From assembly GCA_947085655.1 (NCBI GenBank), contig CAMTXH010000010.1, positions 18,015 to 82,014 of the forward strand: a stretch of DNA of 64,000 nucleotides. The letters are read 5' to 3'. The first letter of the stretch is position 1. Each line of letters opens with the position of its first letter. This document shows positions 6,773 to 44,552 of this stretch, piece by piece. The position numbers and the translations under genes are program-made. This DNA is from an uncultured Omnitrophica bacterium. Lineage in GTDB: Bacteria > Omnitrophota > Gorgyraeia > JACQQV01. The notes below the pieces were generated by a model. The model saw only the letters and a list, made by a program, of their open reading frames with translations. It had not been told where the DNA came from and searched no databases.

Positions 6773-7917
6773 GCTTCCTGAATCCTTCTCTTCGGAAGGG
6801 TCAGTGCCATCCGGATGTATCCTTCTCCGGAAGGGCCGAACCCGACGCCGGGTGTGACAACGATTCCCGCTTTTTCAAACACCCACCGGGCAAAATCGCT
6901 TGAAGAGCGTTTCCGCGCCGGAATAGGTGCCCAGACATAAAAAGTGGCGCGCGGAGCCGGAACGTTCCAGCCGAGTCGGTTCAGTCCCTCGACGAGGGAA
7001 TCCCGCCGCTCTTCATAAAGGCGGTTCCGGAATGCCAAAAGCCGGCTCGGAAGACGAAGCGCTGCAATCCCTGCATGTTGAACCGCCTGAAAAATCCCCG
7101 AATCGACATTCGCCTTGACCTTGGCGAGCGCTGCGATCATCTCCCGACGGCCGCAGGCAAATCCGATTCGCCAGCCGGTCATGTTGTACGTCTTCGAAAG
7201 CGAATGAAACTCGATTCCGACCGCCTTGGCCCCGGGTCGTTGGAGGAAACTGATCGGCCGATACCCGTCGAAGCTGACTTCGGTGTACGCGGCGTCATGA
7301 CATATCATTATACGGTGCCGACGACAAAAGTCAATAGTCTCGTCGAAAAAAGAGGCATCGGCGCAGGCGGCGGTGGGGTTATTCGGATAGTTCAAAAAAA
7401 GGAGTTTGGCCCGCCTCAGCGTCGAGCGCGAAAGACGGGAGAAATCGGGCAGGAAGCCGTTCTCCTCGAGGAGCGGTAGATTCACCACTTCTCCGCCGGC
7501 AAAGTGCGTTCCGCTCCGGTAAGGAGGGTAGCAGGGATCCGGCACAAGGACCGCCTCCTTCGGGTTGATAAGCCCAAGGGGAAGATGGGCAATTCCCTCC
7601 TTGGAACCGAGAAGGGGGAGGATCTCCTTTTGAGGGTCCAAGGTCACCCCAAAGCGCCTTTTGTACCATAGGGCAATTTCCCGACGGAGAGACGGAAGCC
7701 CCTGATCCAGGGCATACCGGTGATTTGCCGGGTCTCTGGCAGCGCGGCTCAAGGCAGAGATCACCGATGGGGGTGTCGGCAGGTCCGGATCTCCGACGCC
7801 AAGATCGATAATATCCCTCCCGGCCGCTTTCGCCTTCCTTTTGGCAGCGTCGAGTTCGGCGAATAAATAAGGGGGGAGTTTCTGAAGACGTTCAGAAAAA
7901 TGAACAGAAAAACTCAT
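6742..7917 (-). CDS. class I PLP-dependent aminotransferase, probably LL-diaminopimelate aminotransferase (DapL-like)
   Basis: LPPYLFAELD...IDLGVGDPDLPTP...YNMTGWRIGF (PLP-lysine region). Sits directly after dapF-dapA-dapB with no dapD/dapE/dapC nearby. Confidence 0.6.
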   Translation of the reverse strand: MSFSVHFSERLQKLPPYLFAELDAAKRKAKAAGRDIIDLGVGDPDLPTPPSVISALSRAARDPANHRYALDQGLPSLRREIALWYKRRFGVTLDPQKEILPLLGSKEGIAHLPLGLINPKEAVLVPDPCYPPYRSGTHFAGGEVVNLPLLEENGFLPDFSRLSRSTLRRAKLLFLNYPNNPTAACADASFFDETIDFCRRHRIMICHDAAYTEVSFDGYRPISFLQRPGAKAVGIEFHSLSKTYNMTGWRIGFACGRREMIAALAKVKANVDSGIFQAVQHAGIAALRLPSRLLAFRNRLYEERRDSLVEGLNRLGWNVPAPRATFYVWAPIPARKRSSSDFARWVFEKAGIVVTPGVGFGPSGEGYIRMALTLPKRRIQEACARFRKLLG

Positions 7918-22510: not shown

Positions 22511-22539
22511 ACTATACCAGACAAAACCGGTCCTGTCAA
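22511..22539 (-). promoter_or_regulatory. sigma70-type promoter of rplM-rpsI
   Basis: minus strand TTGACA(22539-22534)-17 nt-TATAGT(22516-22511), about 20 nt before the rplM ATG. Confidence 0.6.
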
Positions 22540-26159: not shown

Positions 26160-27214
26160 TCCGGACGAGACGGCTTCCATCGGAGGCCATTGAATGTCTT
26201 CTTCCCCTGGAAGAAATAGTCGATAACAACACTTCCCGGATAAACCGGAACCGTCGCAGGGAGTAGATGGTGCTCTTTCGGGGAAAGTGTTTTTCTTTTC
26301 CGAAGAGTTTCTCCGAGATGGATGAGATTCCAAAAGAGTGCCTGGATGATTCCCTTTGATTTTTGAAGGTCACCGCGAACGATCCAATAAAGGAATTCCA
26401 ATCCTTCCAAAAAGAGCCGGATGCCGAGTAAAAAAAGGAACTGCGGGAAAGGGGCGTTTTTCAGTACCATGGCAAGGTTATTCCGGTGGTTCAGATAGTT
26501 CTTCCGGAAATCGCCGTAGGGAAGCGTTGCACCTCCTTGATGATGGACGACCGATCCGGGAACAAACCGGATCCGGTAACCGAGCTGTTGAAACCGCCAA
26601 CAAAGATCGATCTCCTCCATATGGGCGAAAAAGTCTTCATCAAAACCTCCCGCTTCAATGAAAAGGTCCCGTTTCACGGCAAATGCGGTGCCGGAGGCCC
26701 AAAAAAGCTCGACCGGTGAATCGTATTGACCTTCATCTTTTTCAAGTGTCCAGAAAAGCCGCCCTCGGCAAAAGGGATATCCGAACCGGTCCAGATATCC
26801 GCCGGCGGCCCCTCCATATTCAAAAAGAGAGGGATCGGATTTTGAAAGAATTTTCGGCTGGCAGGCGGCGATGGAGGAGTCGGATTCGAGCATGTCGATG
26901 AGGGGCGGAAGCCACCCCTCTTGCACTTCCGCGTCGTCGTTGAGAATCACGGTGAAACGTCCCTTCGCTTCCCGGACGCCCCGATCGACGCTTCCCGAAA
27001 ATCCCCTGTTCTCCTGATTCCTGAGGATTTGAATTTCAGGAAAGATCTTTTTCGCTTCGGAGCTGCTTCCGTCGGTTGAGGCGTCGTCCACAAGAAGAAT
27101 TTCACGATATCCTCCCTGTCGAATGACGCTTGTGAGGCATTGTCGGAGGTGGGAAAAACCGCGGTGATGCGGGATGACGACGCTGACGTCGCGTTGCCCT
27201 GTCAGGGGACTCAT
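26156..27214 (-). CDS. GT2-family glycosyltransferase (rhamnosyltransferase-like)
   Basis: VVIPHH...LLVDDASTDGS...NRGFSG...ILNDD...DEDFF. Confidence 0.75.
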   Translation of the reverse strand: MSPLTGQRDVSVVIPHHRGFSHLRQCLTSVIRQGGYREILLVDDASTDGSSSEAKKIFPEIQILRNQENRGFSGSVDRGVREAKGRFTVILNDDAEVQEGWLPPLIDMLESDSSIAACQPKILSKSDPSLFEYGGAAGGYLDRFGYPFCRGRLFWTLEKDEGQYDSPVELFWASGTAFAVKRDLFIEAGGFDEDFFAHMEEIDLCWRFQQLGYRIRFVPGSVVHHQGGATLPYGDFRKNYLNHRNNLAMVLKNAPFPQFLFLLGIRLFLEGLEFLYWIVRGDLQKSKGIIQALFWNLIHLGETLRKRKTLSPKEHHLLPATVPVYPGSVVIDYFFQGKKTFNGLRWKPSRPE

Positions 27215-27954
27215 CGCGATCGGTGGGTCACCTTTAAAAGACAGAGGCCCCTGGCCGGAGCGGTCGGGCCTGCGAACCGACGGTCCTTTTTCAGGAGGAG
27301 CCGGCGGATTTCTTCCGGTTTCCGTCTTCCCCTTCCCACTTCAAGGAGTGTTCCGACGATATTCCGGACCATCTTGTACAAAAAGCCGTTTCCCTCGATT
27401 TCAATGAAAACATACGGTGAATGTCTCCGGACGGAGATCCGCCGGATCTGCCGGATGGAGGAACGCTCCTTTTTATCCTTTGCCTGAAACGATTTAAAGT
27501 TTTTCCGCCCTTTAAAATGGCCGGCGGCCCGCTTCATCGCCGAAAGATCCAGGGGTCTCGGATAAAAGGTGGTATACAAACGGTCGAAGGGGGAACGGGA
27601 GGGGTGATTCCGGAGAGTATAACGGTAGGTCTTGAGCGCTTTGTCAAAACGGGGATGGAAAGAGAGCGGAACCGATTCCACCTTGACAACCGCCACATCC
27701 GGAGGCAACAGACTGTTCAGCGCGCGTTTGAGTGCCCCACCGGAAATGGCAGAGGCGGTCTTGAAAGAGACGAGATGCCCGAGGGCATGAACGCCGGCGT
27801 CCGTCCGCCCGGAAGAAAGGAGCCGGATATTCTCTTTCAGAATTTGTCTCAACGTCTTTTGTAGAATCGCCTGCACGGTCAGGGCATTTTTTTGAACTTG
27901 AAAGCCGGCGTATCGCGTTCCGTCGTAACTCACGGTCAGCGCGAGATGTCTCAT
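27211..27954 (-). CDS. truA: tRNA pseudouridine(38-40) synthase
   Basis: VSYDGTRYAGFQVQ...GRTDAGVHA. Confidence 0.9.
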   Translation of the reverse strand: MRHLALTVSYDGTRYAGFQVQKNALTVQAILQKTLRQILKENIRLLSSGRTDAGVHALGHLVSFKTASAISGGALKRALNSLLPPDVAVVKVESVPLSFHPRFDKALKTYRYTLRNHPSRSPFDRLYTTFYPRPLDLSAMKRAAGHFKGRKNFKSFQAKDKKERSSIRQIRRISVRRHSPYVFIEIEGNGFLYKMVRNIVGTLLEVGRGRRKPEEIRRLLLKKDRRFAGPTAPARGLCLLKVTHRSR

Positions 27955-28955
27955 AAGTGCTCTGCAATCTGAACGGCGTTCAAGGCGGCTCCCTTCCGGA
28001 GGTTGTCCCCCACCACCCAGAAATTGAGTCCCGACGGAACAGTCGGGTCCTTCCGGATTCGCCCGACAAAGACATCATCCTTCCCCGCTCCATGGATCGG
28101 GAGGGGATATTCCGCCTTCTGGGGATTGTCAATCACCTGAACCCCCGGTGCCTTGGAGAGGAGTTTCCGCGCCTCTTGCGGTGAAATCGGTTTTTCAAAT
28201 TCCGCGTTGACCGATTCGGAATGGGCATAGAAGACCGGCACCCGGACCGTTGTGGCGGTAATGGCAAACGAATCGTTCATGATTTTCTGGGTCTCAAGCA
28301 TCACCTTCGTCTCCTCCCGGCTGTACCCGTCTTCCGAGAAGACGTCGATATGGGGAATGACGTTAAAGGCGATCTGATGCGGGAATTTTGAGGGCGAGGC
28401 CGCCTTTCCCTGAAGGAGTAAAGCGGTCTGATTCTTGAGTTCCTCAATCGCCTTTCCTCCCGCCCCGGAGACAGATTGATACGTGGAGACCACGACCCGC
28501 TTGACCCGGGCCCGGTCATGGAGCGGCTTGAGCACCAAAACCAGTTGAATCGTGGAGCAGTTCGGATTCGCAATGAGCCCTTTGTGGGTTTTGATGAGTT
28601 CCCCGTTCACCTCCGGCACAATCAAAGGGATATTCCTTTCCATCCGGAAGGCACTCGAGTTATCCACCACAATGCATCCTGCTTTGACCGCCTGCGGGGC
28701 GAATTCCTGGCTTCGGGAAGCCCCGGCGCTGAAAAGGGCAAGGTCCAGCCCTTCAAAGACTCCCTCCTTCAAGGTCTCAACCGGAATTTCTTTTCCGCGG
28801 AAGGAAAGCTTCATTCCTTCCGATTTTTCGGAGGCGAAAAGACGGAGACTTTTCACCGGAAAATTCCGCTCTTCCAATACACGGATCATTTCCCGGCCCA
28901 CTGCGCCGGTTGCTCCGACGATGCCGACGTTGCAAGGTTTTTTCAGTCCACCCAT
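27951..28955 (-). CDS. asd: aspartate-semialdehyde dehydrogenase
   Basis: VGIVGATGAVG...NPNCSTIQ...SGAG. Confidence 0.9.
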   Translation of the reverse strand: MGGLKKPCNVGIVGATGAVGREMIRVLEERNFPVKSLRLFASEKSEGMKLSFRGKEIPVETLKEGVFEGLDLALFSAGASRSQEFAPQAVKAGCIVVDNSSAFRMERNIPLIVPEVNGELIKTHKGLIANPNCSTIQLVLVLKPLHDRARVKRVVVSTYQSVSGAGGKAIEELKNQTALLLQGKAASPSKFPHQIAFNVIPHIDVFSEDGYSREETKVMLETQKIMNDSFAITATTVRVPVFYAHSESVNAEFEKPISPQEARKLLSKAPGVQVIDNPQKAEYPLPIHGAGKDDVFVGRIRKDPTVPSGLNFWVVGDNLRKGAALNAVQIAEHL

Positions 28956-28956
28956 T

Positions 28957-30009
28957 CTATACCTCTTTGGCCACCAAGTCCCCCACTTCGGTCGTGGAGT
29001 AACCCATCTTTCCCGCCGAAAGACTCTTTAACTTTTGAGTCACCGTCTGGATGGCATTCTCGATCCGTGAGGCCGCCTTCGGCTCGCCCAGATACTCAAG
29101 CATGATCTGACCTGCGGCAATCGCCGCCAAAGGATTAATGACATTTTTGCCGGTGTATTTCGGGGCGGACCCGCCGATCGGCTCGAACATGGAGACCCCT
29201 TCCGGATTCAAGTTGCCGCCTGCGGCAATTCCCATGCCTCCCTGAATCATCGCACCGAGGTCCGTGATGATATCCCCGAACATGTTATCCGTCACAATCA
29301 CATCAAACCATTCCGGATTCTTCACCATCCACATGCAGGTCGCATCCACATGGGCATAATCGGTCGTCACATCCGGGTAATCCTTCGCGACCTGGTTGAA
29401 TACCCGCTGCCAGAGGTCATGCGCATAGTTCAAGACGTTTGTTTTTCCGCAGAAGGTCAGTTTCTTTTTCTTATTCCGTTTCCGGGTGTATTCAAAGGCA
29501 AAGCGGATGCACCGCTCCGCTCCTTTGTACGTGTTGATCGACTCCTGAATCGCCGTCTCCTCCTTTGTCCCTTTCTTTTCGAAGCGCCCGATTCCCTTAT
29601 AGAGCCCTTCCGTATTCTCGCGGACCACCACAAAATCGATTTCCTCTGGGCCCTTATCCTTGAGAGGCGTCCAGACTCCCGGATAGAGTTTCACCGGACG
29701 GAGATTGATGTACTGATCCAGATCAAAGCGGATCTTAAGGAGAATCCCCCGCTCGAGAATTCCGGGCGCCACATCCGGGTGCCCGATCGCCCCAAGGTAG
29801 ATGGCATCCTTTTTCCGGAACTCCGAAAGGGCCGCATCCGGAAGGATTTCCTTTGTCTTCAAATAATGGATGCCGCCGTAAGGGTACGTTTCAAAGTCAA
29901 ACGCCACCCCGTCCCGTTTCCCGACCGCATTCAAGACCTTGATTCCCTCCCGAATCACTTCAGGGCCGGTTCCGTCCCCAGGAATGACCGCAATCTGATA
30001 CCGTTTCAT
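28957..30009 (-). CDS. leuB: 3-isopropylmalate dehydrogenase
   Basis: [13 protein letters not shown]...VRENTEGLY...isocitrate/IPM dehydrogenase motif NMFGDIITD. Confidence 0.9.
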
Positions 30010-30542
30010 TTCCGGAGCATCCTTTTTGCGTATTCAAACACATCCCCCGCCTCCAGAATCTCCCGGACCGCACCGATCGGGCGGAGGGTGTATGTTTTGT
30101 TTTGGGTGAAATTTTTCATTTTCGATTCCGAAAGCGAAATTTCCACCTCATCCCCGGTCTTCACCTTGTCGCAGAGCCGCTCTTCGCTTTCCAGAGGAAT
30201 CAAAAGGGCCGCGTTGACGCTATTCCTGAAAAAAATCCGGGCATAGTAGGAAGCGACCACCGCCCTCACCCCGGAGGCGTTCAGCGCCCCGGGTGCCTGC
30301 GCGCGGGAAGAGCCGCATCCGAAATTCTCCCCCGCCACAATAACGGTGTAAGGGGATTTCCCCCTTTTTTTGTCGATAAAGGGGGGCAATGTCTCCGGAA
30401 GCCCTTCGAGGGCATGGCTCCCCAATTCATCCTTTTGCGCGGGATTGGTGTGGCTTAGGTTCAGGTATTGGGCCGGAATGATGACATCCGTGTCGATGTT
30501 ATCTCCCAACACATACGCTTTTCCGGTAATTCGGTCTTCCAT
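30006..30542 (-). CDS. leuD: 3-isopropylmalate dehydratase small subunit
   Basis: DNIDTDVIIP...GENFGCGSSR. Confidence 0.88.
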   Translation of the reverse strand: MEDRITGKAYVLGDNIDTDVIIPAQYLNLSHTNPAQKDELGSHALEGLPETLPPFIDKKRGKSPYTVIVAGENFGCGSSRAQAPGALNASGVRAVVASYYARIFFRNSVNAALLIPLESEERLCDKVKTGDEVEISLSESKMKNFTQNKTYTLRPIGAVREILEAGDVFEYAKRMLRK

Positions 30543-30558
30543 AATTCCTCGGCGACCC

Positions 30559-30864
30559 TTAGATCAGCCCCATCTTCCGTAAGCGTTTAAAGAGTTCTCG
30601 ATAGACCTCATCATCCCTGCGGATACCCACCTTTAGCACAAGGACTCGAACTTCTCTCTTGTAGATACGATAAATGACGCGGTAGTCTTCCACGCGAAGC
30701 CGGTAATATCCTTTAAACTCGCCTACAAGGGGCTTCCCATAATTTTCCGGATGACTGGTAAGCTTTTCCTCAATGGCTTGGAAAATTTTTCTGCGGATTC
30801 TGAGGTCCAACCCCTTTAAGTCCTCGGTAATGACCAAGGGATGGATGGCGACTTCCCACATCAA
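30559..30864 (-). CDS. RelE/ParE-family type II toxin
   Basis: 101 aa; YRLRVEDYRVIYRIYKREVRVLVLKVGIRRDDEVY. Confidence 0.8.
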   Translation of the reverse strand: MMWEVAIHPLVITEDLKGLDLRIRRKIFQAIEEKLTSHPENYGKPLVGEFKGYYRLRVEDYRVIYRIYKREVRVLVLKVGIRRDDEVYRELFKRLRKMGLI

Positions 30865-31140
30865 TTAGCAAATCCCTGCCCGTTTCTTCGCTTCCTGCAA
30901 AGAAAGAGGTTTCCCCTTTCTCTCTCTCTGCTTTGCCAAGGCCGCAAGACCATAGTCTTCAATGAACTCAAGGAGCGATTCCAAGCGCTCAAATTCCTCG
31001 ATAGAAAGGAGCATCGCAACAGGTTTATTGCGTTTTTCAATCATCACGTGATGCTTCTTGATTTCTTCTAAGATCGCATCGATCTTTGTTCGAAACTCGG
31101 AGACCCCCACTAACGTCGTATCTTCCTTTACTGTAATCAT
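30865..31140 (-). CDS. Phd/YefM-family antitoxin
   Basis: start set at MITVKED (GGGGGTG SD); VGVSEFRTKIDAILEEI...VMIEKRNKPVAMLLSIEEFERL; stop lies adjacent to the toxin start. Confidence 0.75.
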   Translation of the reverse strand: MITVKEDTTLVGVSEFRTKIDAILEEIKKHHVMIEKRNKPVAMLLSIEEFERLESLLEFIEDYGLAALAKQRERKGKPLSLQEAKKRAGIC

Positions 31141-31159
31141 GCCGGTCACCCCCACATAC

Positions 31160-31188
31160 AGTATATCATGGGTCTTTTGAATTGTCAA
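31160..31188 (-). promoter_or_regulatory. near-consensus sigma70 promoter of the antitoxin-toxin pair
   Basis: minus strand TTGACA(31188-31183)-17 nt-TATACT(31165-31160); the ORF track's apparent TTG start is the -35 box. Confidence 0.6.
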
Positions 31189-31232
31189 ATAAATATACTA
31201 TTTAATTTAACTTTCAATAACCTATTTTAAGC

Positions 31233-31367
31233 CTATGAGTTACACCTCTCTTTAGGCTTCCAAATCGGAATCTTAAAGCGCACTCTGAGATCCCGATCCA
31301 ACATGACCCTTTTTCCGCGAATCTGGAAAATCTTACTTTCTATCTTTTCAACCGGAGCCAACTCCAT
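31233..31367 (-). pseudogene. truncated ORF6N-domain (phage antirepressor-type) gene fragment, 44 codons
   Basis: TAGGAGGTAGGAG SD then MELAPVEKIESKIFQIRGKRVMLDRDLRVRFKIPIWKPKERCNS*. This matches the N-terminal IxxKIxxIRGxxVMLDxDLA hallmark of ORF6N proteins but stops after about 44 aa. AT-rich. Confidence 0.5.
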
Positions 31368-31447
31368 CTCCTACCTCCTATGGGCATAGAACCTTTGAGT
31401 GGCTCCGTTTTAGATTGCTATCAAAGAACGATGTTTCAAAATCCGAA

Positions 31448-32776
31448 TTACAAGAATTCTCGTGGATCCGTAATATGCCCTGTAATCGCTGATGCTGCTA
31501 CCGTGTACGGTGAAGCGAGATAAATCTGCGCCTTTTTGGATCCCATCCGGCCGACAAAATTCCGGTTCGTGGTGGTAATCACCACCGTCGTATCGGCCGC
31601 CCTCCCGATCGTATCGGCCGGGCCGCCGAGGCAGGCCTGGCATCCGGGCGGCATCGGTCCCTTGGCCCCCGATTCCTGGAAAATGGCGGCGAGTGTCTCG
31701 CCGTCAACCTTTTCGCGATGCAAATCGTCATAAATCTCCTTGGTCGCCGGCACGATAAAGGTTTCGATCTTGACCTTCTTTCCCTTCAGCACCTTGGCGG
31801 CCGCCCTGAAATCGGTGATTTTCCCTCCGGTGCAGGATCCGATATATGCCCTGTTCAGCGAAATATCCTTCAATTTCCGCGCCGTGTCATAGTTGTCGGG
31901 TGAATGCGGTTTGGCAATGCTCGGTTCGATCTCGCTTGCCTTGAATTCATGGATAGACGCATACCGGGCATCCGGGTCGCTTTTCACCACTTCAAAGGGC
32001 TTCTCGCTCCGCTCCCTGACATAGGCGAGGATATTTTCCGTCGGAGGAATGACGCCGTTTTTCCCCCCTGCTTCAATCACCATGTTGCAGAGGGTCATTT
32101 TCTCCTCAACGCTCAAACTTTCCACCCCTTCGCCGGTAAATTCCATCGCCTTGTAAGTGGCGCCCCCGATTCCGATAGTGCCGATGATTTTAAGAATCAG
32201 GTCCTTCGCCATCAAATAAGAGGGCAGTTTCCCGTGCACCACGAATTTCATCGTCGGAGGGACTTTCACCCAAAGTTTCCCGAGTCCCAAAATGAGCGCC
32301 GCATCCGCGTCCCCGATTCCGGTTGCAAAAGTCCCGAACGCCCCCGAAGTGCAGGTATGGGAATCGGTCCCGAAGAGAATCTCGCCGGGGCGGTTATGTC
32401 CTTTCTGGGCAAGGGCGATGTGACAGACGCCGGTATAGGTGTCGGAGAGTGTCTCAAACGTCCCCATGAAATCCTCCCCCACATCGTAGAAATATTTCAG
32501 CCCCTGTTCCTTCGCAAACCGGCGGACGAGGGCGATGTTCTCCTCCGATTTTTTGTCCTGGGTAAAGATGAAGTGGTCCGGGATAATCACCACTTTATCC
32601 GGATCCCAGACCTTTGCATCCGCCCCGAACTTTTCGTAGAAGACATTGACCGCACCGGGTCCGCAAATATCATGGGTCATGAGGACATCCGTCTCCACCC
32701 AGATATTCTCGCCCGGTTCCGCCTTCCGTTTCCCGGCCCCCCGGGCCAGGATTTTTTCGGTCATCGTCATTCCCAT
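31448..32776 (-). CDS. leuC: 3-isopropylmalate dehydratase large subunit (short aconitase-family form)
   Basis: MTMTEKIL...DVLMTHD...GTDSHT...Fe-S cysteines GSCTGG / CQAC. Confidence 0.88.
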   Translation of the reverse strand: MGMTMTEKILARGAGKRKAEPGENIWVETDVLMTHDICGPGAVNVFYEKFGADAKVWDPDKVVIIPDHFIFTQDKKSEENIALVRRFAKEQGLKYFYDVGEDFMGTFETLSDTYTGVCHIALAQKGHNRPGEILFGTDSHTCTSGAFGTFATGIGDADAALILGLGKLWVKVPPTMKFVVHGKLPSYLMAKDLILKIIGTIGIGGATYKAMEFTGEGVESLSVEEKMTLCNMVIEAGGKNGVIPPTENILAYVRERSEKPFEVVKSDPDARYASIHEFKASEIEPSIAKPHSPDNYDTARKLKDISLNRAYIGSCTGGKITDFRAAAKVLKGKKVKIETFIVPATKEIYDDLHREKVDGETLAAIFQESGAKGPMPPGCQACLGGPADTIGRAADTTVVITTTNRNFVGRMGSKKAQIYLASPYTVAASAITGHITDPREFL

Positions 32777-32793: not shown

Positions 32794-33588
32794 TTATGTT
32801 CCGATGATTCCTTCAACCGGACTTGAAGCGGAAGCGTACCTTTTCCTCGGAATCCGGCCCGCCTCAAAAGCGAGCCGGCCCGCCTCCACCGCCAGTTTCA
32901 TGGCGCGCGCCATCTTGACCGGATCTTTGGCGCCCGCGATCGCCGTATTCATCAACACACCGTCCGCCCCCAGTTCCATCGCAACAGAAGCATCCGACGC
33001 GGTTCCGACCCCCGCATCCACAATCACCGGAATCGACACCGCTTCCTTAATAAAGGTAATGTTCAGCCGGTTCTGAATCCCCATGCCGGAGCCGATCGGG
33101 GCGGCAAGCGGCATCACACAGGCGGCCCCTGCTCCCTCCAGTTTCTTAGCCATAATCGGGTCGTCGTTCGTATACGGCATCACGATAAATCCCTCTTTCA
33201 CCAACACGCGGGTTGCGGCAAGGAGCGCTTCGTTGTCCGGAAGAAGGGTCTTTTCATCGCCGATCACTTCCAGTTTAATCAGATTCGTCCCGACCGCCTC
33301 GCGCGCCAGATGTGCAGTCCGGATCGCATCCTCCGCGGTATAGCATCCCGCCGTATTCGGAAGGAGGGTGAAACGTTTCCGGTCGATGTAATCCAAGAGC
33401 GATTCTTTGGTCGGGTCGTCCAAATTGACCCGCCGCACGGCGACCGTCACCATCTCCGCCCCGGAGGCCTCATGGGCCTTTTGCATCAGTTTGAAATCAG
33501 CATATTTGCCGGTGCCGACAATCAGCCGGGAATGAAACACCCGCTCCCCAATCACCAAGCCCTCAACCGCTTGCTTCACCTGCACCAT
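32794..33588 (-). CDS. thiG: thiazole synthase
   Basis: [15 protein letters not shown]...[10 protein letters not shown]...[12 protein letters not shown]. Confidence 0.9.
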
Positions 33589-33669
33589 TTTCGTAACTCC
33601 TTGAAAATAAAAGTGTTGGAAATTTTCTTAAAACGAGACGAACATTCTCTTTTACTTCTCAAATTATTT

Positions 33670-33698
33670 ATTATAACGTAGATTGTTTCGGGATGCAA
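33670..33698 (-). promoter_or_regulatory. sigma70 promoter of thiG
   Basis: minus strand TTGCAT(33698-33693)-17 nt-TATAAT(33675-33670); AGGAG SD before the ATG; no TPP-riboswitch motifs (CUGAGA) seen. Confidence 0.55.
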
Positions 33699-33710
33699 GG
33701 ATTCGGGAAT

Positions 33711-34514
33711 TTAGCGCCGTTTTCCGAAACGGGGCATCGCCCCAAGGAGCTTTTGGGTATAAGGATGGGCAGGATGGGTAAAAAGATTCTCGGTGGATGC
33801 GACCTCCACCACCTTTCCGAAGCACATCACCACCACCCGGTCGGTGAGACTTTCCAGGACCCCGAGGTTGTGGGTAATAAAAAGGTAGGTGAGTTGATAT
33901 TTTTTCTGGAGGGAAAGAAGGAGATTCAGAACCTGCGCCTGCACCGAAAGGTCCAGAGAAGAGACCGGTTCATCCAGAATCAGCACCTCCGGCCCGGTCG
34001 CAAGGGCTCTCGCAATTCCGATCCGCTGGCGCTGTCCCCCCGAAAAAGCATGGGGAAATCGCCGGGCATGCTCTGGTTCAAGTCCCACCTGTTTTAAAAG
34101 TTCCGATACCCGGCCGGGGATTTCGCTGGGCTTGGTGAGTCCGTGGATCCAGAGCGGCTCTCCGATCATCTCTCCGATCCGCATCCTCGGATTAAGCGAA
34201 CCGAAGGGATCTTGAAAGACCGGTTGCACCCGACGGCGGAATATCTTCCACTCTTTCCGGGAAAAGGAAGAGAGGGTTTTTCCTTCAAAGACAACCTCTC
34301 CGGCTGTCGGAACGTCGAGCCCGAGGAGAAGCCGCGCCAAAGTTGATTTGCCGCACCCCGATTCCCCCACAAGGCCCAAGGTCTCGCCCCGGTAAAGAGA
34401 AAGATCGACTCCGTCAACCGCTTTGACCCACCCAAGCGCTCTCCCAGCCAATCCTCCCTTGAGAGGAAAATACCGCTTGAGAGAACGGGCCTCGAAAAGG
34501 GCGCCGTTTTTCAT
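33711..34514 (-). CDS. oligo/dipeptide ABC transporter ATP-binding protein (OppF/DppF-like)
   Basis: Walker [10 protein letters not shown]; LSGGQRQR; Walker [11 protein letters not shown]. Confidence 0.88.
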
Positions 34515-44524: not shown

Positions 44525-44552
44525 ATTATAGCACAGATTTCAGGGATGGCAA
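44525..44552 (-). promoter_or_regulatory. promoter with extended -10 upstream of galT-gap-pgk-tpiA-secG
   Basis: minus strand TTGCCA(44552-44547)-16 nt-TGcTATAAT (the -10 at 44530-44525); AT-rich spacer after the fmt stop. Confidence 0.55.

Follow-up and report, generated by a model that had tools for sequence, protein, structure and literature searches.

A RelE-family toxin-antitoxin cassette between leuC and leuD of an Omnitrophota bacterium and its apparent exchange between lineages

Among toxin-antitoxin (TA) systems with solved structures, the nearest to the module that we describe here are RelBE2 of Mycobacterium tuberculosis (Rv2865-Rv2866, 3G5O), RelBE1 of the same species (9G12), and RelE of Thermus thermophilus (2KHE), which are the best matches of its toxin (E values from 4e-9 to 1e-4). 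For modules of the Escherichia coli RelBE type, the expected mechanism is ribosome-dependent cleavage of mRNA together with autoregulated transcription. Our module lies between leuC and leuD in a 64-kb stretch of DNA from an uncultured groundwater bacterium of the Omnitrophota (contig CAMTXH010000010.1, positions 18,015 to 82,014); we call this whole stretch the window, and positions are given within it. With a probability of about 0.8, we think that the module is a self-contained type II TA cassette, that it replaced most of an earlier occupant of the spacer (an ORF6N gene), that it is mobile, and that it was recently exchanged with another lineage at the leuC-leuD site.

The cassette is a standard type II RelE-family module, of the ordinary chromosomal kind in both function and structure. 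Like the mycobacterial and Thermus modules, it is a two-gene operon with the antitoxin first. Unlike them, it belongs to another phylum (identity is just 26-29%), its antitoxin has a RelB-like C-terminus (PF18506), and it sits within a biosynthetic operon without a terminator of its own. With RelBE of E. coli (4V7J and 4V7K) it shares the RelE fold, and its toxin has equivalents of K54 (as an arginine), R61, R81, and Y87. However, RelB of E. coli is a ribbon-helix-helix protein, while the antitoxin here has a Phd/YefM N-terminal domain, and K52 is unaligned. The YefM-YoeB and Axe-Txe systems also combine a Phd/YefM-fold antitoxin with an RNase of the RelE superfamily, and by likeness to them a palindromic operator over the promoter would be expected. 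But our toxin misses the cut-off for Txe/YoeB and is structurally nearer to RelE than to YoeB.

In architecture, the closest analogue comes from the chromosomal integrons of Vibrio, whose TA cassettes are also compact TA units with an internal promoter in an operon-like array. These cassettes have documented promoters of their own, and how they affect downstream cassettes has been called largely unexplored (PMC11014356). In contrast, there is no attC, integrase, or integron platform at our locus, and the “array” is a housekeeping biosynthetic operon. We searched the literature and found no TA module described between leuC and leuD; the one paper that names both only lists neighboring genes on a staphylococcal element. 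This locus would be a natural example of a selfish two-gene module that sits inside a packed biosynthetic operon without breaking it, with its own promoter and no terminator. It would also be a case in which species exchange such a module at one fixed position of the chromosome, here in a phylum that is known almost only from metagenomes.

The toxin, the antitoxin, and their promoter

The cassette has the following parts:

30559-31233, minus strand: mobile TA cassette of about 675 bp (promoter region, antitoxin, and toxin), delimited by homology to copies elsewhere
31177-31217, minus strand: candidate operator from a repeat search, an imperfect palindrome with 19-nt arms that are 74% complementary, spanning the -35 box
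31160-31188, minus strand: sigma-70-type promoter TTGACA-17-TATACT, 11/12 match to the consensus, with an extended -10 TG
31146-31153, minus strand: Shine-Dalgarno-like site GGGGGTGA, 5 nt upstream of the antitoxin ATG, read from the sequence
30865-31140, minus strand: antitoxin, 91 aa, with a Phd/YefM N-terminal domain and a RelB-like C-terminal region, from profiles
30559-30861, minus strand: RelE-family (RelE/StbE) mRNA-interferase-type toxin, 100 aa, from profiles, PDB matches, and an AlphaFold2 model

The toxin scores above the curated cut-offs of Pfam ParE_toxin (PF05016, 39.4 bits against 23) and NCBIfam RelE_StbE (TIGR02385, 35.5 bits against 27.9), and it matches a RelE-like toxin family in PHROG (1.6e-17). 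It starts at ATG 30861, with TTG at 30864 as a possible alternative. Its nearest solved relatives by sequence are T. thermophilus RelE (E = 4e-9), M. tuberculosis RelE1 and RelE2, and E. coli RelE. We built an AlphaFold2 model from 31 homologs (pLDDT 86.7, pTM 0.78), and in Foldseek it superposes on 9G12, 2KHE, and 3G5O with a root-mean-square deviation of 1.6-2.0 Å and TM scores of 0.72-0.83. The top Foldseek matches are all RelE, in keeping with the RelE fold of N-terminal helices against an antiparallel sheet; YoeB, YafQ, HigB, and ParE rank below.

The catalytic residues of E. coli RelE are K52, K54, R61, R81, and Y87. In the HMMER alignment, R54, R61, R81, and Y87 of our toxin stand opposite the last four of these. 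Across the 31 homologs, R61 and Y87 are invariant, R81 is nearly so, and position 54 is always arginine or lysine. The toxin reaches 18.6 bits against the Txe/YoeB equivalog (cut-off 51.8), and the cut-off of the YafQ equivalog is likewise far from reached. Because the profiles, the structure, and these residues agree and the YoeB and YafQ cut-offs are missed, we class the toxin as RelE/StbE-type and its partner as a Phd/YefM-fold antitoxin, a pairing that resembles the mycobacterial RelBE2 type. We also considered that the toxin might be a gyrase poison of the ParE type; we rejected this in view of the RelE_StbE match, the ranking of the structural matches, and the conserved Arg/Tyr catalytic positions.

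The antitoxin is encoded directly 5' of the toxin, with a gap of 3 nt. It matches PhdYeFM_antitox (PF02604, 46.2 bits, cut-off 29.8) and phd_fam (TIGR01552, 29.3 bits, cut-off 20.8). The RelB-like match (PF18506, 40 bits, cut-off 27) covers residues 45-102 of a mechanical 107-aa open reading frame (ORF), and this segment is the predicted toxin-binding C-terminus. The 107-aa ORF (30865-31188) begins within the promoter, and translation most likely starts at ATG 31140, which gives 91 aa, as this start is called in independent assemblies and in every homologous cassette. The best PDB match of the antitoxin, a weak one, is the RelB chain of 9G12.

The promoter consists of TTGACA (31188-31183), a 17-nt spacer, and TATACT (31165-31160), with the TG extension at 31168-31167. 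Both hexamers and the TG are identical in six close versions of the cassette whose synonymous sites are saturated, and GGAGG/GGGGGTGA is kept across the cassette copies. Thus the RelE-family toxin, the Phd/YefM antitoxin, and the near-consensus promoter that had been proposed from the DNA letters alone (the sequence-only reading) have all held up, the two proteins in profile searches above curated cut-offs and the promoter with 11 of 12 positions and a TG extension.

Sites that match at least 11 of the 12 consensus positions occur four times in the window, against 0.52 ± 0.74 in composition-preserving shuffles (about 8-fold enrichment). The three others, all on the minus strand, are at 22539 (just upstream of rplM-rpsI, 22490-21640), at 44552 (upstream of a 332-aa ORF, 44481-43483), and at 7334. 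Given this excess, and given that one of the sites is near rplM-rpsI, the organism appears to use the canonical sigma-70 consensus.

The imperfect palindrome is not the only candidate for an operator: the promoter is also enclosed by a perfect 7-nt inverted repeat, AGTATAT/ATATACT, with its arms at 31193-31199 and 31160-31166. The motif TTGACAATT occurs once in the window and is doubled in two distant cassettes, L093 (direct repeat) and L095 (inverted repeat); L numbers are our labels for the loci that we compared. From what is known of the family, an antitoxin dimer would bind the palindromic DNA around the -35 box, with the toxin as a co-repressor, and the C-terminus of the antitoxin would wrap around the toxin and neutralize it. 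Depletion of the labile antitoxin would then free the toxin to cleave mRNA in the ribosomal A site and would derepress the promoter.

Probable exchange at the leuC-leuD site and copies at other loci

Evidence for exchange comes from a contig of an unrelated sequencing run (L089, from SRR22387998) that has the same order of a truncated ORF6N gene, the cassette, and leuD. The antitoxin genes of the window and of L089 are 96.0% identical as DNA, the toxin genes 94.7%, and the promoter regions 90.4%, versus 79.0% for leuD (85% at the protein level) and 80.1% for the upstream spacer. In a sliding window, identity forms a plateau of 90-100% from about 31251 to about 30480 (roughly 770 bp) and is 70-80% on both sides. 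By the Nei-Gojobori method, synonymous divergence (dS) is 0.13 for the antitoxin and 0.19 for the toxin but 1.09 for leuD, while the ratio of nonsynonymous to synonymous divergence (dN/dS) is similar; for the antitoxin it is 0.15. The simplest reading is that the cassette and its junctions were recently transferred between diverged lineages of Omnitrophota, probably by homologous recombination in the flanks.

Could the cassette instead have been acquired once, by the common ancestor of the window and L089, and simply have been better conserved than its neighbors, with no recent transfer? The two loci do have their junctions and the ORF6N remnant in common, and their leuD genes are 79% identical to each other as compared to 76% for either one to the closest relative of the window (L001). 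However, the 6- to 8-fold lower dS in the TA genes than in leuD excludes simple vertical inheritance, and because dN/dS is similar, constraint on the proteins cannot explain the high identity of the TA genes. The sharp drop in identity at both edges of the tract is also hard to square with inheritance alone, and we consider this scenario very unlikely. The sequence-only reading had held that it would be wrong if relatives carried the same genes at the same position by ancestry. L089 does carry them there, but ancestry does not fit with a cassette that is 95-96% identical between flanks at about 79-80%.

The cassette also occurs at other loci. In a search of about 5.8 billion proteins, the toxin had nine close homologs (76-96% identity), followed by proteins at 61% or less, several of which are annotated as Omnitrophota. 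With blastn, the homology runs from 31233 to 30559 for L088, from 31225 to 30559 for L084 and L092, and from 31219 to 30574 for L091. In other words, it begins 31-45 nt upstream of the -35 box and ends at the last base of the toxin's stop codon (or, for L091, at 30574). The neighbors differ. In L084-L087 (toxin 87% identical), the cassette follows a retropepsin-like gene and precedes a convergent gene, near birA, coaX, and groES. In L088 (86%), the start of tag (methyladenine glycosylase) directly follows the toxin's stop codon, at 0 nt. In L091 (79%), the cassette is 26 nt upstream of a gcvT-like gene (identified by eye from the N-terminus of the protein). L092 (78-79%, Logan assembly of ERR4904391) shares its sequencing project with the window but has another flank. 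Judging by these homologies, the cassette demonstrably moves between lineages and behaves as a discrete mobile unit. We rejected an origin as an integron cassette: there is no attC, nothing is conserved past the toxin's stop codon, and the genes called within 6 kb on either side include no integrase.

A birA-like gene (HTH_11 and BPL_LplA_LipB domains) lies just downstream of members of the TA family in two loci, L084:3611-4588 (toxin 87% identical) and L097:1448-2425 (56%). This may be a coincidence or another recurrent site.

Between copies of the cassette, whose synonymous sites are saturated, dN/dS is 0.04-0.15 for both genes, so the TA module has been maintained by strong purifying selection. 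This also bears on whether the module might be a decaying, non-functional remnant that persists as junk. A pseudogene does adjoin the cassette (the ORF6N remnant), and chromosomal TA modules often decay. Nevertheless, both ORFs are intact, four of the five catalytic positions are conserved, the promoter and the Shine-Dalgarno-like site are invariant, and the same locus is present in several samples. With dN/dS this low across the copies, we think that decay is extremely improbable.

Several observations weigh against a functional, mobile, and recently exchanged cassette. First, E. coli RelE's K52 is opposite a gap in our toxin, so that four of the five catalytic positions are conserved. Second, the operator is no more than a candidate, with inverted repeats that are either short or imperfect, and alignments of 4-10 sequences contained no convincing compensatory changes in the inverted repeats around the promoter. 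Third, L089 is a short-read contig of 1.46 kb, and the interior of its cassette is possibly a strain-mixed consensus; despite this caveat, its junctions prove the presence of the cassette at the leuC-leuD site of a diverged host. Fourth, nothing that could carry the cassette to new loci is visible, be it repeats, target duplications, or a recombinase. Finally, toxicity, neutralization, operator binding, and read-through are all things that we infer, and autorepressed TA promoters may give little steady-state transcription.

The leuC-leuD spacer and its earlier occupant

The spacer and the related gene in L001 have these features:

30543-31447, minus strand: leuC-leuD spacer, 905 bp
31296-31429, minus strand: part of the spacer that relatives have as well (a conserved upstream element and about 30 codons of the ORF6N start), from blastn
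31233-31367, minus strand: 44-aa ORF, the 5' remnant (a pseudogene) of an ORF6N/PDC-S05-like gene, from its match to L001
L001:1372-1953, plus strand: intact ORF6N gene, 193 aa, whose stop codon overlaps the ATG of leuD

In the direction of transcription, the spacer holds about 80 nt after the leuC stop codon, the 44-aa ORF, an AT-rich stretch with the promoter, the Shine-Dalgarno-like site, the antitoxin, the toxin, and 16 more nt. For comparison, we fetched 80 loci that encode relatives of LeuC and located leuD; 62 of these have leuC and then leuD. The median gap between the two genes is 27.5 nt. So the statement in the sequence-only reading that leuC and leuD normally abut is true for the majority, but the gap exceeds 150 nt in 17 of the 62 loci, with assorted genes that differ by phylum. 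The leuC-leuD junction is a recurrent site of small in-line insertions.

Within the Omnitrophota, the spacer is 11 nt in L017 and L018 (LeuC 62% identical) and is empty, at 119 nt, in L003 (76%). The closest relative (L001, LeuC 89% identical) has a spacer of 677 bp that is filled by the co-oriented and intact ORF6N gene, and it has no TA module. The product of this gene matches Pfam ORF6N (116.8 bits, 5e-34), PADLOC PDC-S05 (6e-53), and phage anti-repressor families in PHROG. L002 (LeuC 78%) contains decayed pieces of the same gene and also has no TA module. In the window, the first 30 or so residues of the 44-aa ORF match the N-terminus of the L001 protein (69% identity over 32 aa, E = 6e-8). 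Against Pfam ORF6N itself, the 44-aa ORF is below the threshold (17.2 bits against 27.8, E = 0.006, profile positions 1-21 only), and it has no match in PHROG. At the DNA level, 31296-31429 aligns with 1367-1500 of L001 (71%, E = 9e-15), with 2491-2557 of L002 (78%), and with 75-222 of L089 (78%). The homology to L001 ends at about 31296, and homology to the host resumes at 30550. These alignments indicate that an ORF6N gene once filled the spacer and that the TA cassette replaced most of it.

Because L001 has an intact ORF6N gene without a TA module and the window has the stump of one, the junction was already open when the TA genes arrived. This corrects the original reading of a simple insertion between leuC and leuD; the phage-type gene remnant that had been noticed beside it is real, and we can now identify it as the 5' stump of an ORF6N gene. 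The suggested comparison of synteny gave a mixed answer as well: intact junctions do exist in relatives (the spacers of 11 nt and the empty one of 119 nt), but L001 and L002 have ORF6N DNA there. The prediction that about 890 bp of lower-GC DNA is foreign to the leuC-leuD junction was borne out, as the GC content of the spacer is 0.442 against 0.532 for the window and as L003, L017, and L018 have junctions without TA genes. The GC content of the cassette is 0.441, and at third codon positions it is 0.52-0.56 in the TA genes as compared to 0.66-0.69 in the neighboring host genes; both values agree with a foreign origin.

We can rule out an assembly artefact because the locus is nearly identical in the source metagenome-assembled genome (GCA_964374045.1) and in two independent Logan assemblies of other runs (100%, 100%, and 99.93% identity). 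The TA ORFs are uninterrupted in 6 contigs from at least 3 samples. The window has no other paralog of the toxin, the antitoxin, or the ORF6N gene. Rfam (at gathering thresholds) and tRNA scans gave no matches across the whole window, which leaves the locus without a leader RNA, a riboswitch, or a tRNA that could have served as an integration site.

The identity of the earlier occupant raises the question of whether the spacer is a hotspot for anti-phage or accessory genes, with the TA module as an abortive-infection-type successor to ORF6N/PDC-S05. The intact gene in L001 is a clear match to PDC-S05, and the spacer has been through successive occupancy and turnover. In E. coli, one representative of PDC-S05 cut the plating of T7 and T5 about 1000-fold and also protected against T4 (bioRxiv 10.1101/2024.09.26.614923). 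Also, a study of a groundwater metagenome rich in Omnitrophota reports RelE/StbE among the cargo that moves laterally (bioRxiv 10.64898/2026.05.20.726742). On the other hand, the TA proteins match no PADLOC defense model, there are no further defense genes in the spacer, the surrounding operon is of the housekeeping kind, and defense activity is not general among RelE-type TA modules. A degenerate DNA probe made from the conserved promoter matched only an already known contig in the JGI metagenomes and no viral contig, so it added neither further contexts nor a viral carrier. So we are doubtful that the spacer is an island of defense genes, and we favor the replacement of an ORF6N gene by a mobile TA cassette.

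Other lineages have other occupants. The spacers of the Nitrospirales/Nitrospirota loci (L005:7319-7681, L006:7312-7677, and L007:7314-7673) are 380-457 bp long and contain a co-oriented gene of about 120 aa; the products in L005 and L006 are Cupin_2 proteins (Pfam, 2e-11 to 1e-14), a different and lineage-specific occupant. Four loci, mostly of the Dormiibacterota type (L068:7287-8126, L079:7287-8126, L045:3973-4782, and L058:7287-8063), have spacers of 800-860 bp with host-like GC content and a co-oriented ORF of 258-279 aa. By eye, this ORF has a signal-like segment at the N-terminus and a hydrophobic stretch at the C-terminus, and the products in L068, L045, and L058 have no significant Pfam family. 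In another four loci (L047:4145-4345, L070:7287-7487, L078:1921-2091, and L062:7306-7635), the real leuD is preceded by a short ORF with a LeuD-like start (MTLPKVIRGRAWKFGA...), apparently a duplicate of the 5' part of leuD. Two elements in the Omnitrophota are absent from the window: about 320 nt of extra GC-rich DNA right after leuC in L002 (2087-2420), and an element of about 75 nt with a long hairpin (GGGACTAAGTCCC ... GGGACTTAGTCCC) in L001 (1276-1366).

Possible read-through and the surrounding operon

The cassette lies in a tightly packed run of genes, thiG-leuC-[TA]-leuD-leuB-asd-truA, all on the minus strand:

32794-33588, minus strand: thiG, with a 17-nt gap before leuC
31448-32776, minus strand: leuC, aconitase-family large subunit of the hacA/archaeal LeuC type, 442 aa, the host gene upstream of the cassette
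30543-30558, minus strand: 16-nt junction from the stop codon of the toxin to the start of leuD, with the leuD Shine-Dalgarno site GAGGA at 30550-30546
30006-30542, minus strand: leuD, small subunit of the LEUD_arch type, 178 aa, the first host gene 3' of the cassette
28957-30009, minus strand: leuB, 4-nt overlap with leuD, Pfam and NCBIfam matches
27951-28955, minus strand: asd, 1 nt after leuB, Pfam and NCBIfam matches
27211-27954, minus strand: truA, 4-nt overlap with asd, Pfam and NCBIfam matches

The leuC product matches Pfam Aconitase (3.6e-88) and NCBIfam NF001614 (474 bits, cut-off 385). LeuD matches TIGR02087 (135.9 bits, cut-off 109) as well as Aconitase_C, and LeuB matches a model for 3-isopropylmalate dehydrogenase.

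As the sequence-only reading had observed, the toxin stops 16 nt before leuD, and we found nothing terminator-like in between. A scan for terminators found two weak matches to the consensus, both inside coding sequences and no more than in shuffled DNA, and none at either junction of the cassette. The folds at the junctions are no more stable than those of shuffled sequences (z-scores of 0.33 for the toxin-leuD junction and 0.87 for the other). We compared nine independent contexts of the TA family. In five of them, a co-oriented gene lies 0-45 nt past the toxin, namely leuD, tag, the gcvT-like gene, an 83-aa ORF, or a PTL_trimer/Gly-rich gene. In another two, the co-oriented gene is 196-359 nt away, and in the last two the next gene is convergent. 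The five tight contexts are suggestive, but compact genomes have many such short gaps.

The missing terminator, the end of the cassette right at the stop codon, and the co-oriented genes close behind it in 5/9 contexts make read-through coupling plausible, and the structure of the locus predicts that transcription from the TA promoter would extend into leuD-leuB-asd-truA. RNA that starts upstream in the operon would cross the TA genes, and RNA from the TA promoter would continue into leuD, leuB, asd, and truA. This would explain how an insertion of about 890 bp between genes for two subunits can be tolerated. The insertion would thereby be non-polar and would give the downstream genes a second input, one that the TA module regulates. 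The gene for the partner subunit, leuC, is upstream of the TA promoter and so is outside of this input. If the TA promoter does feed leuD-leuB-asd-truA, then a mobile element would be rewiring the regulation of amino acid biosynthesis.

This leads to the idea that the cassette is mainly a portable stress-responsive promoter and that the TA genes are the regulator of this promoter more than an addiction or defense module. Degradation of the antitoxin, for example upon amino acid starvation, would then boost leuD-leuB-asd-truA. Transcription of relBE in E. coli reportedly goes up upon amino acid starvation (Christensen and colleagues, 2001), and stress is said to induce the transcription of TA modules without necessarily freeing the toxin (LeRoux and colleagues, 2020). 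The cassette's lack of a terminator, its end at a stop codon, the co-oriented host gene within 45 nt in five of nine contexts, and the near-consensus and invariant promoter would all fit. TA cassettes with their own promoters in integron arrays are a precedent (PMC11014356). However, leuC would not be co-induced because it is upstream, so any stoichiometric benefit would be uncertain. Furthermore, four of the nine contexts are not both tight and co-oriented, and short co-oriented gaps are common by chance in compact genomes. We think that this regulatory role is unlikely and that the cassette is better viewed as a mobile TA module whose promoter may also reach the host genes.

A broader and similarly improbable proposal is that there is an operon-adapted “plug-in” family of cassettes that insert or are retained 5' of co-oriented housekeeping genes, that they restore and rewire the transcription of these genes through a promoter that the antitoxin controls and that stress derepresses, and that the leuC-leuD spacer is a recurrent docking site. 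If this were true, then starvation-triggered loss of the antitoxin would raise the expression of leuD-leuB-asd. Also, ORF6N/PDC-S05 and then TA genes would replace one another at the spacer, and homologous recombination in the flanks would exchange them between species.

Finally, a low-GC intergenic region of 122 bp (33589-33710, GC content about 0.40-0.42) lies between an ABC-transporter gene (33711-34514) and thiG, and it likely holds the promoter of the thiG-leuC-...-truA operon.

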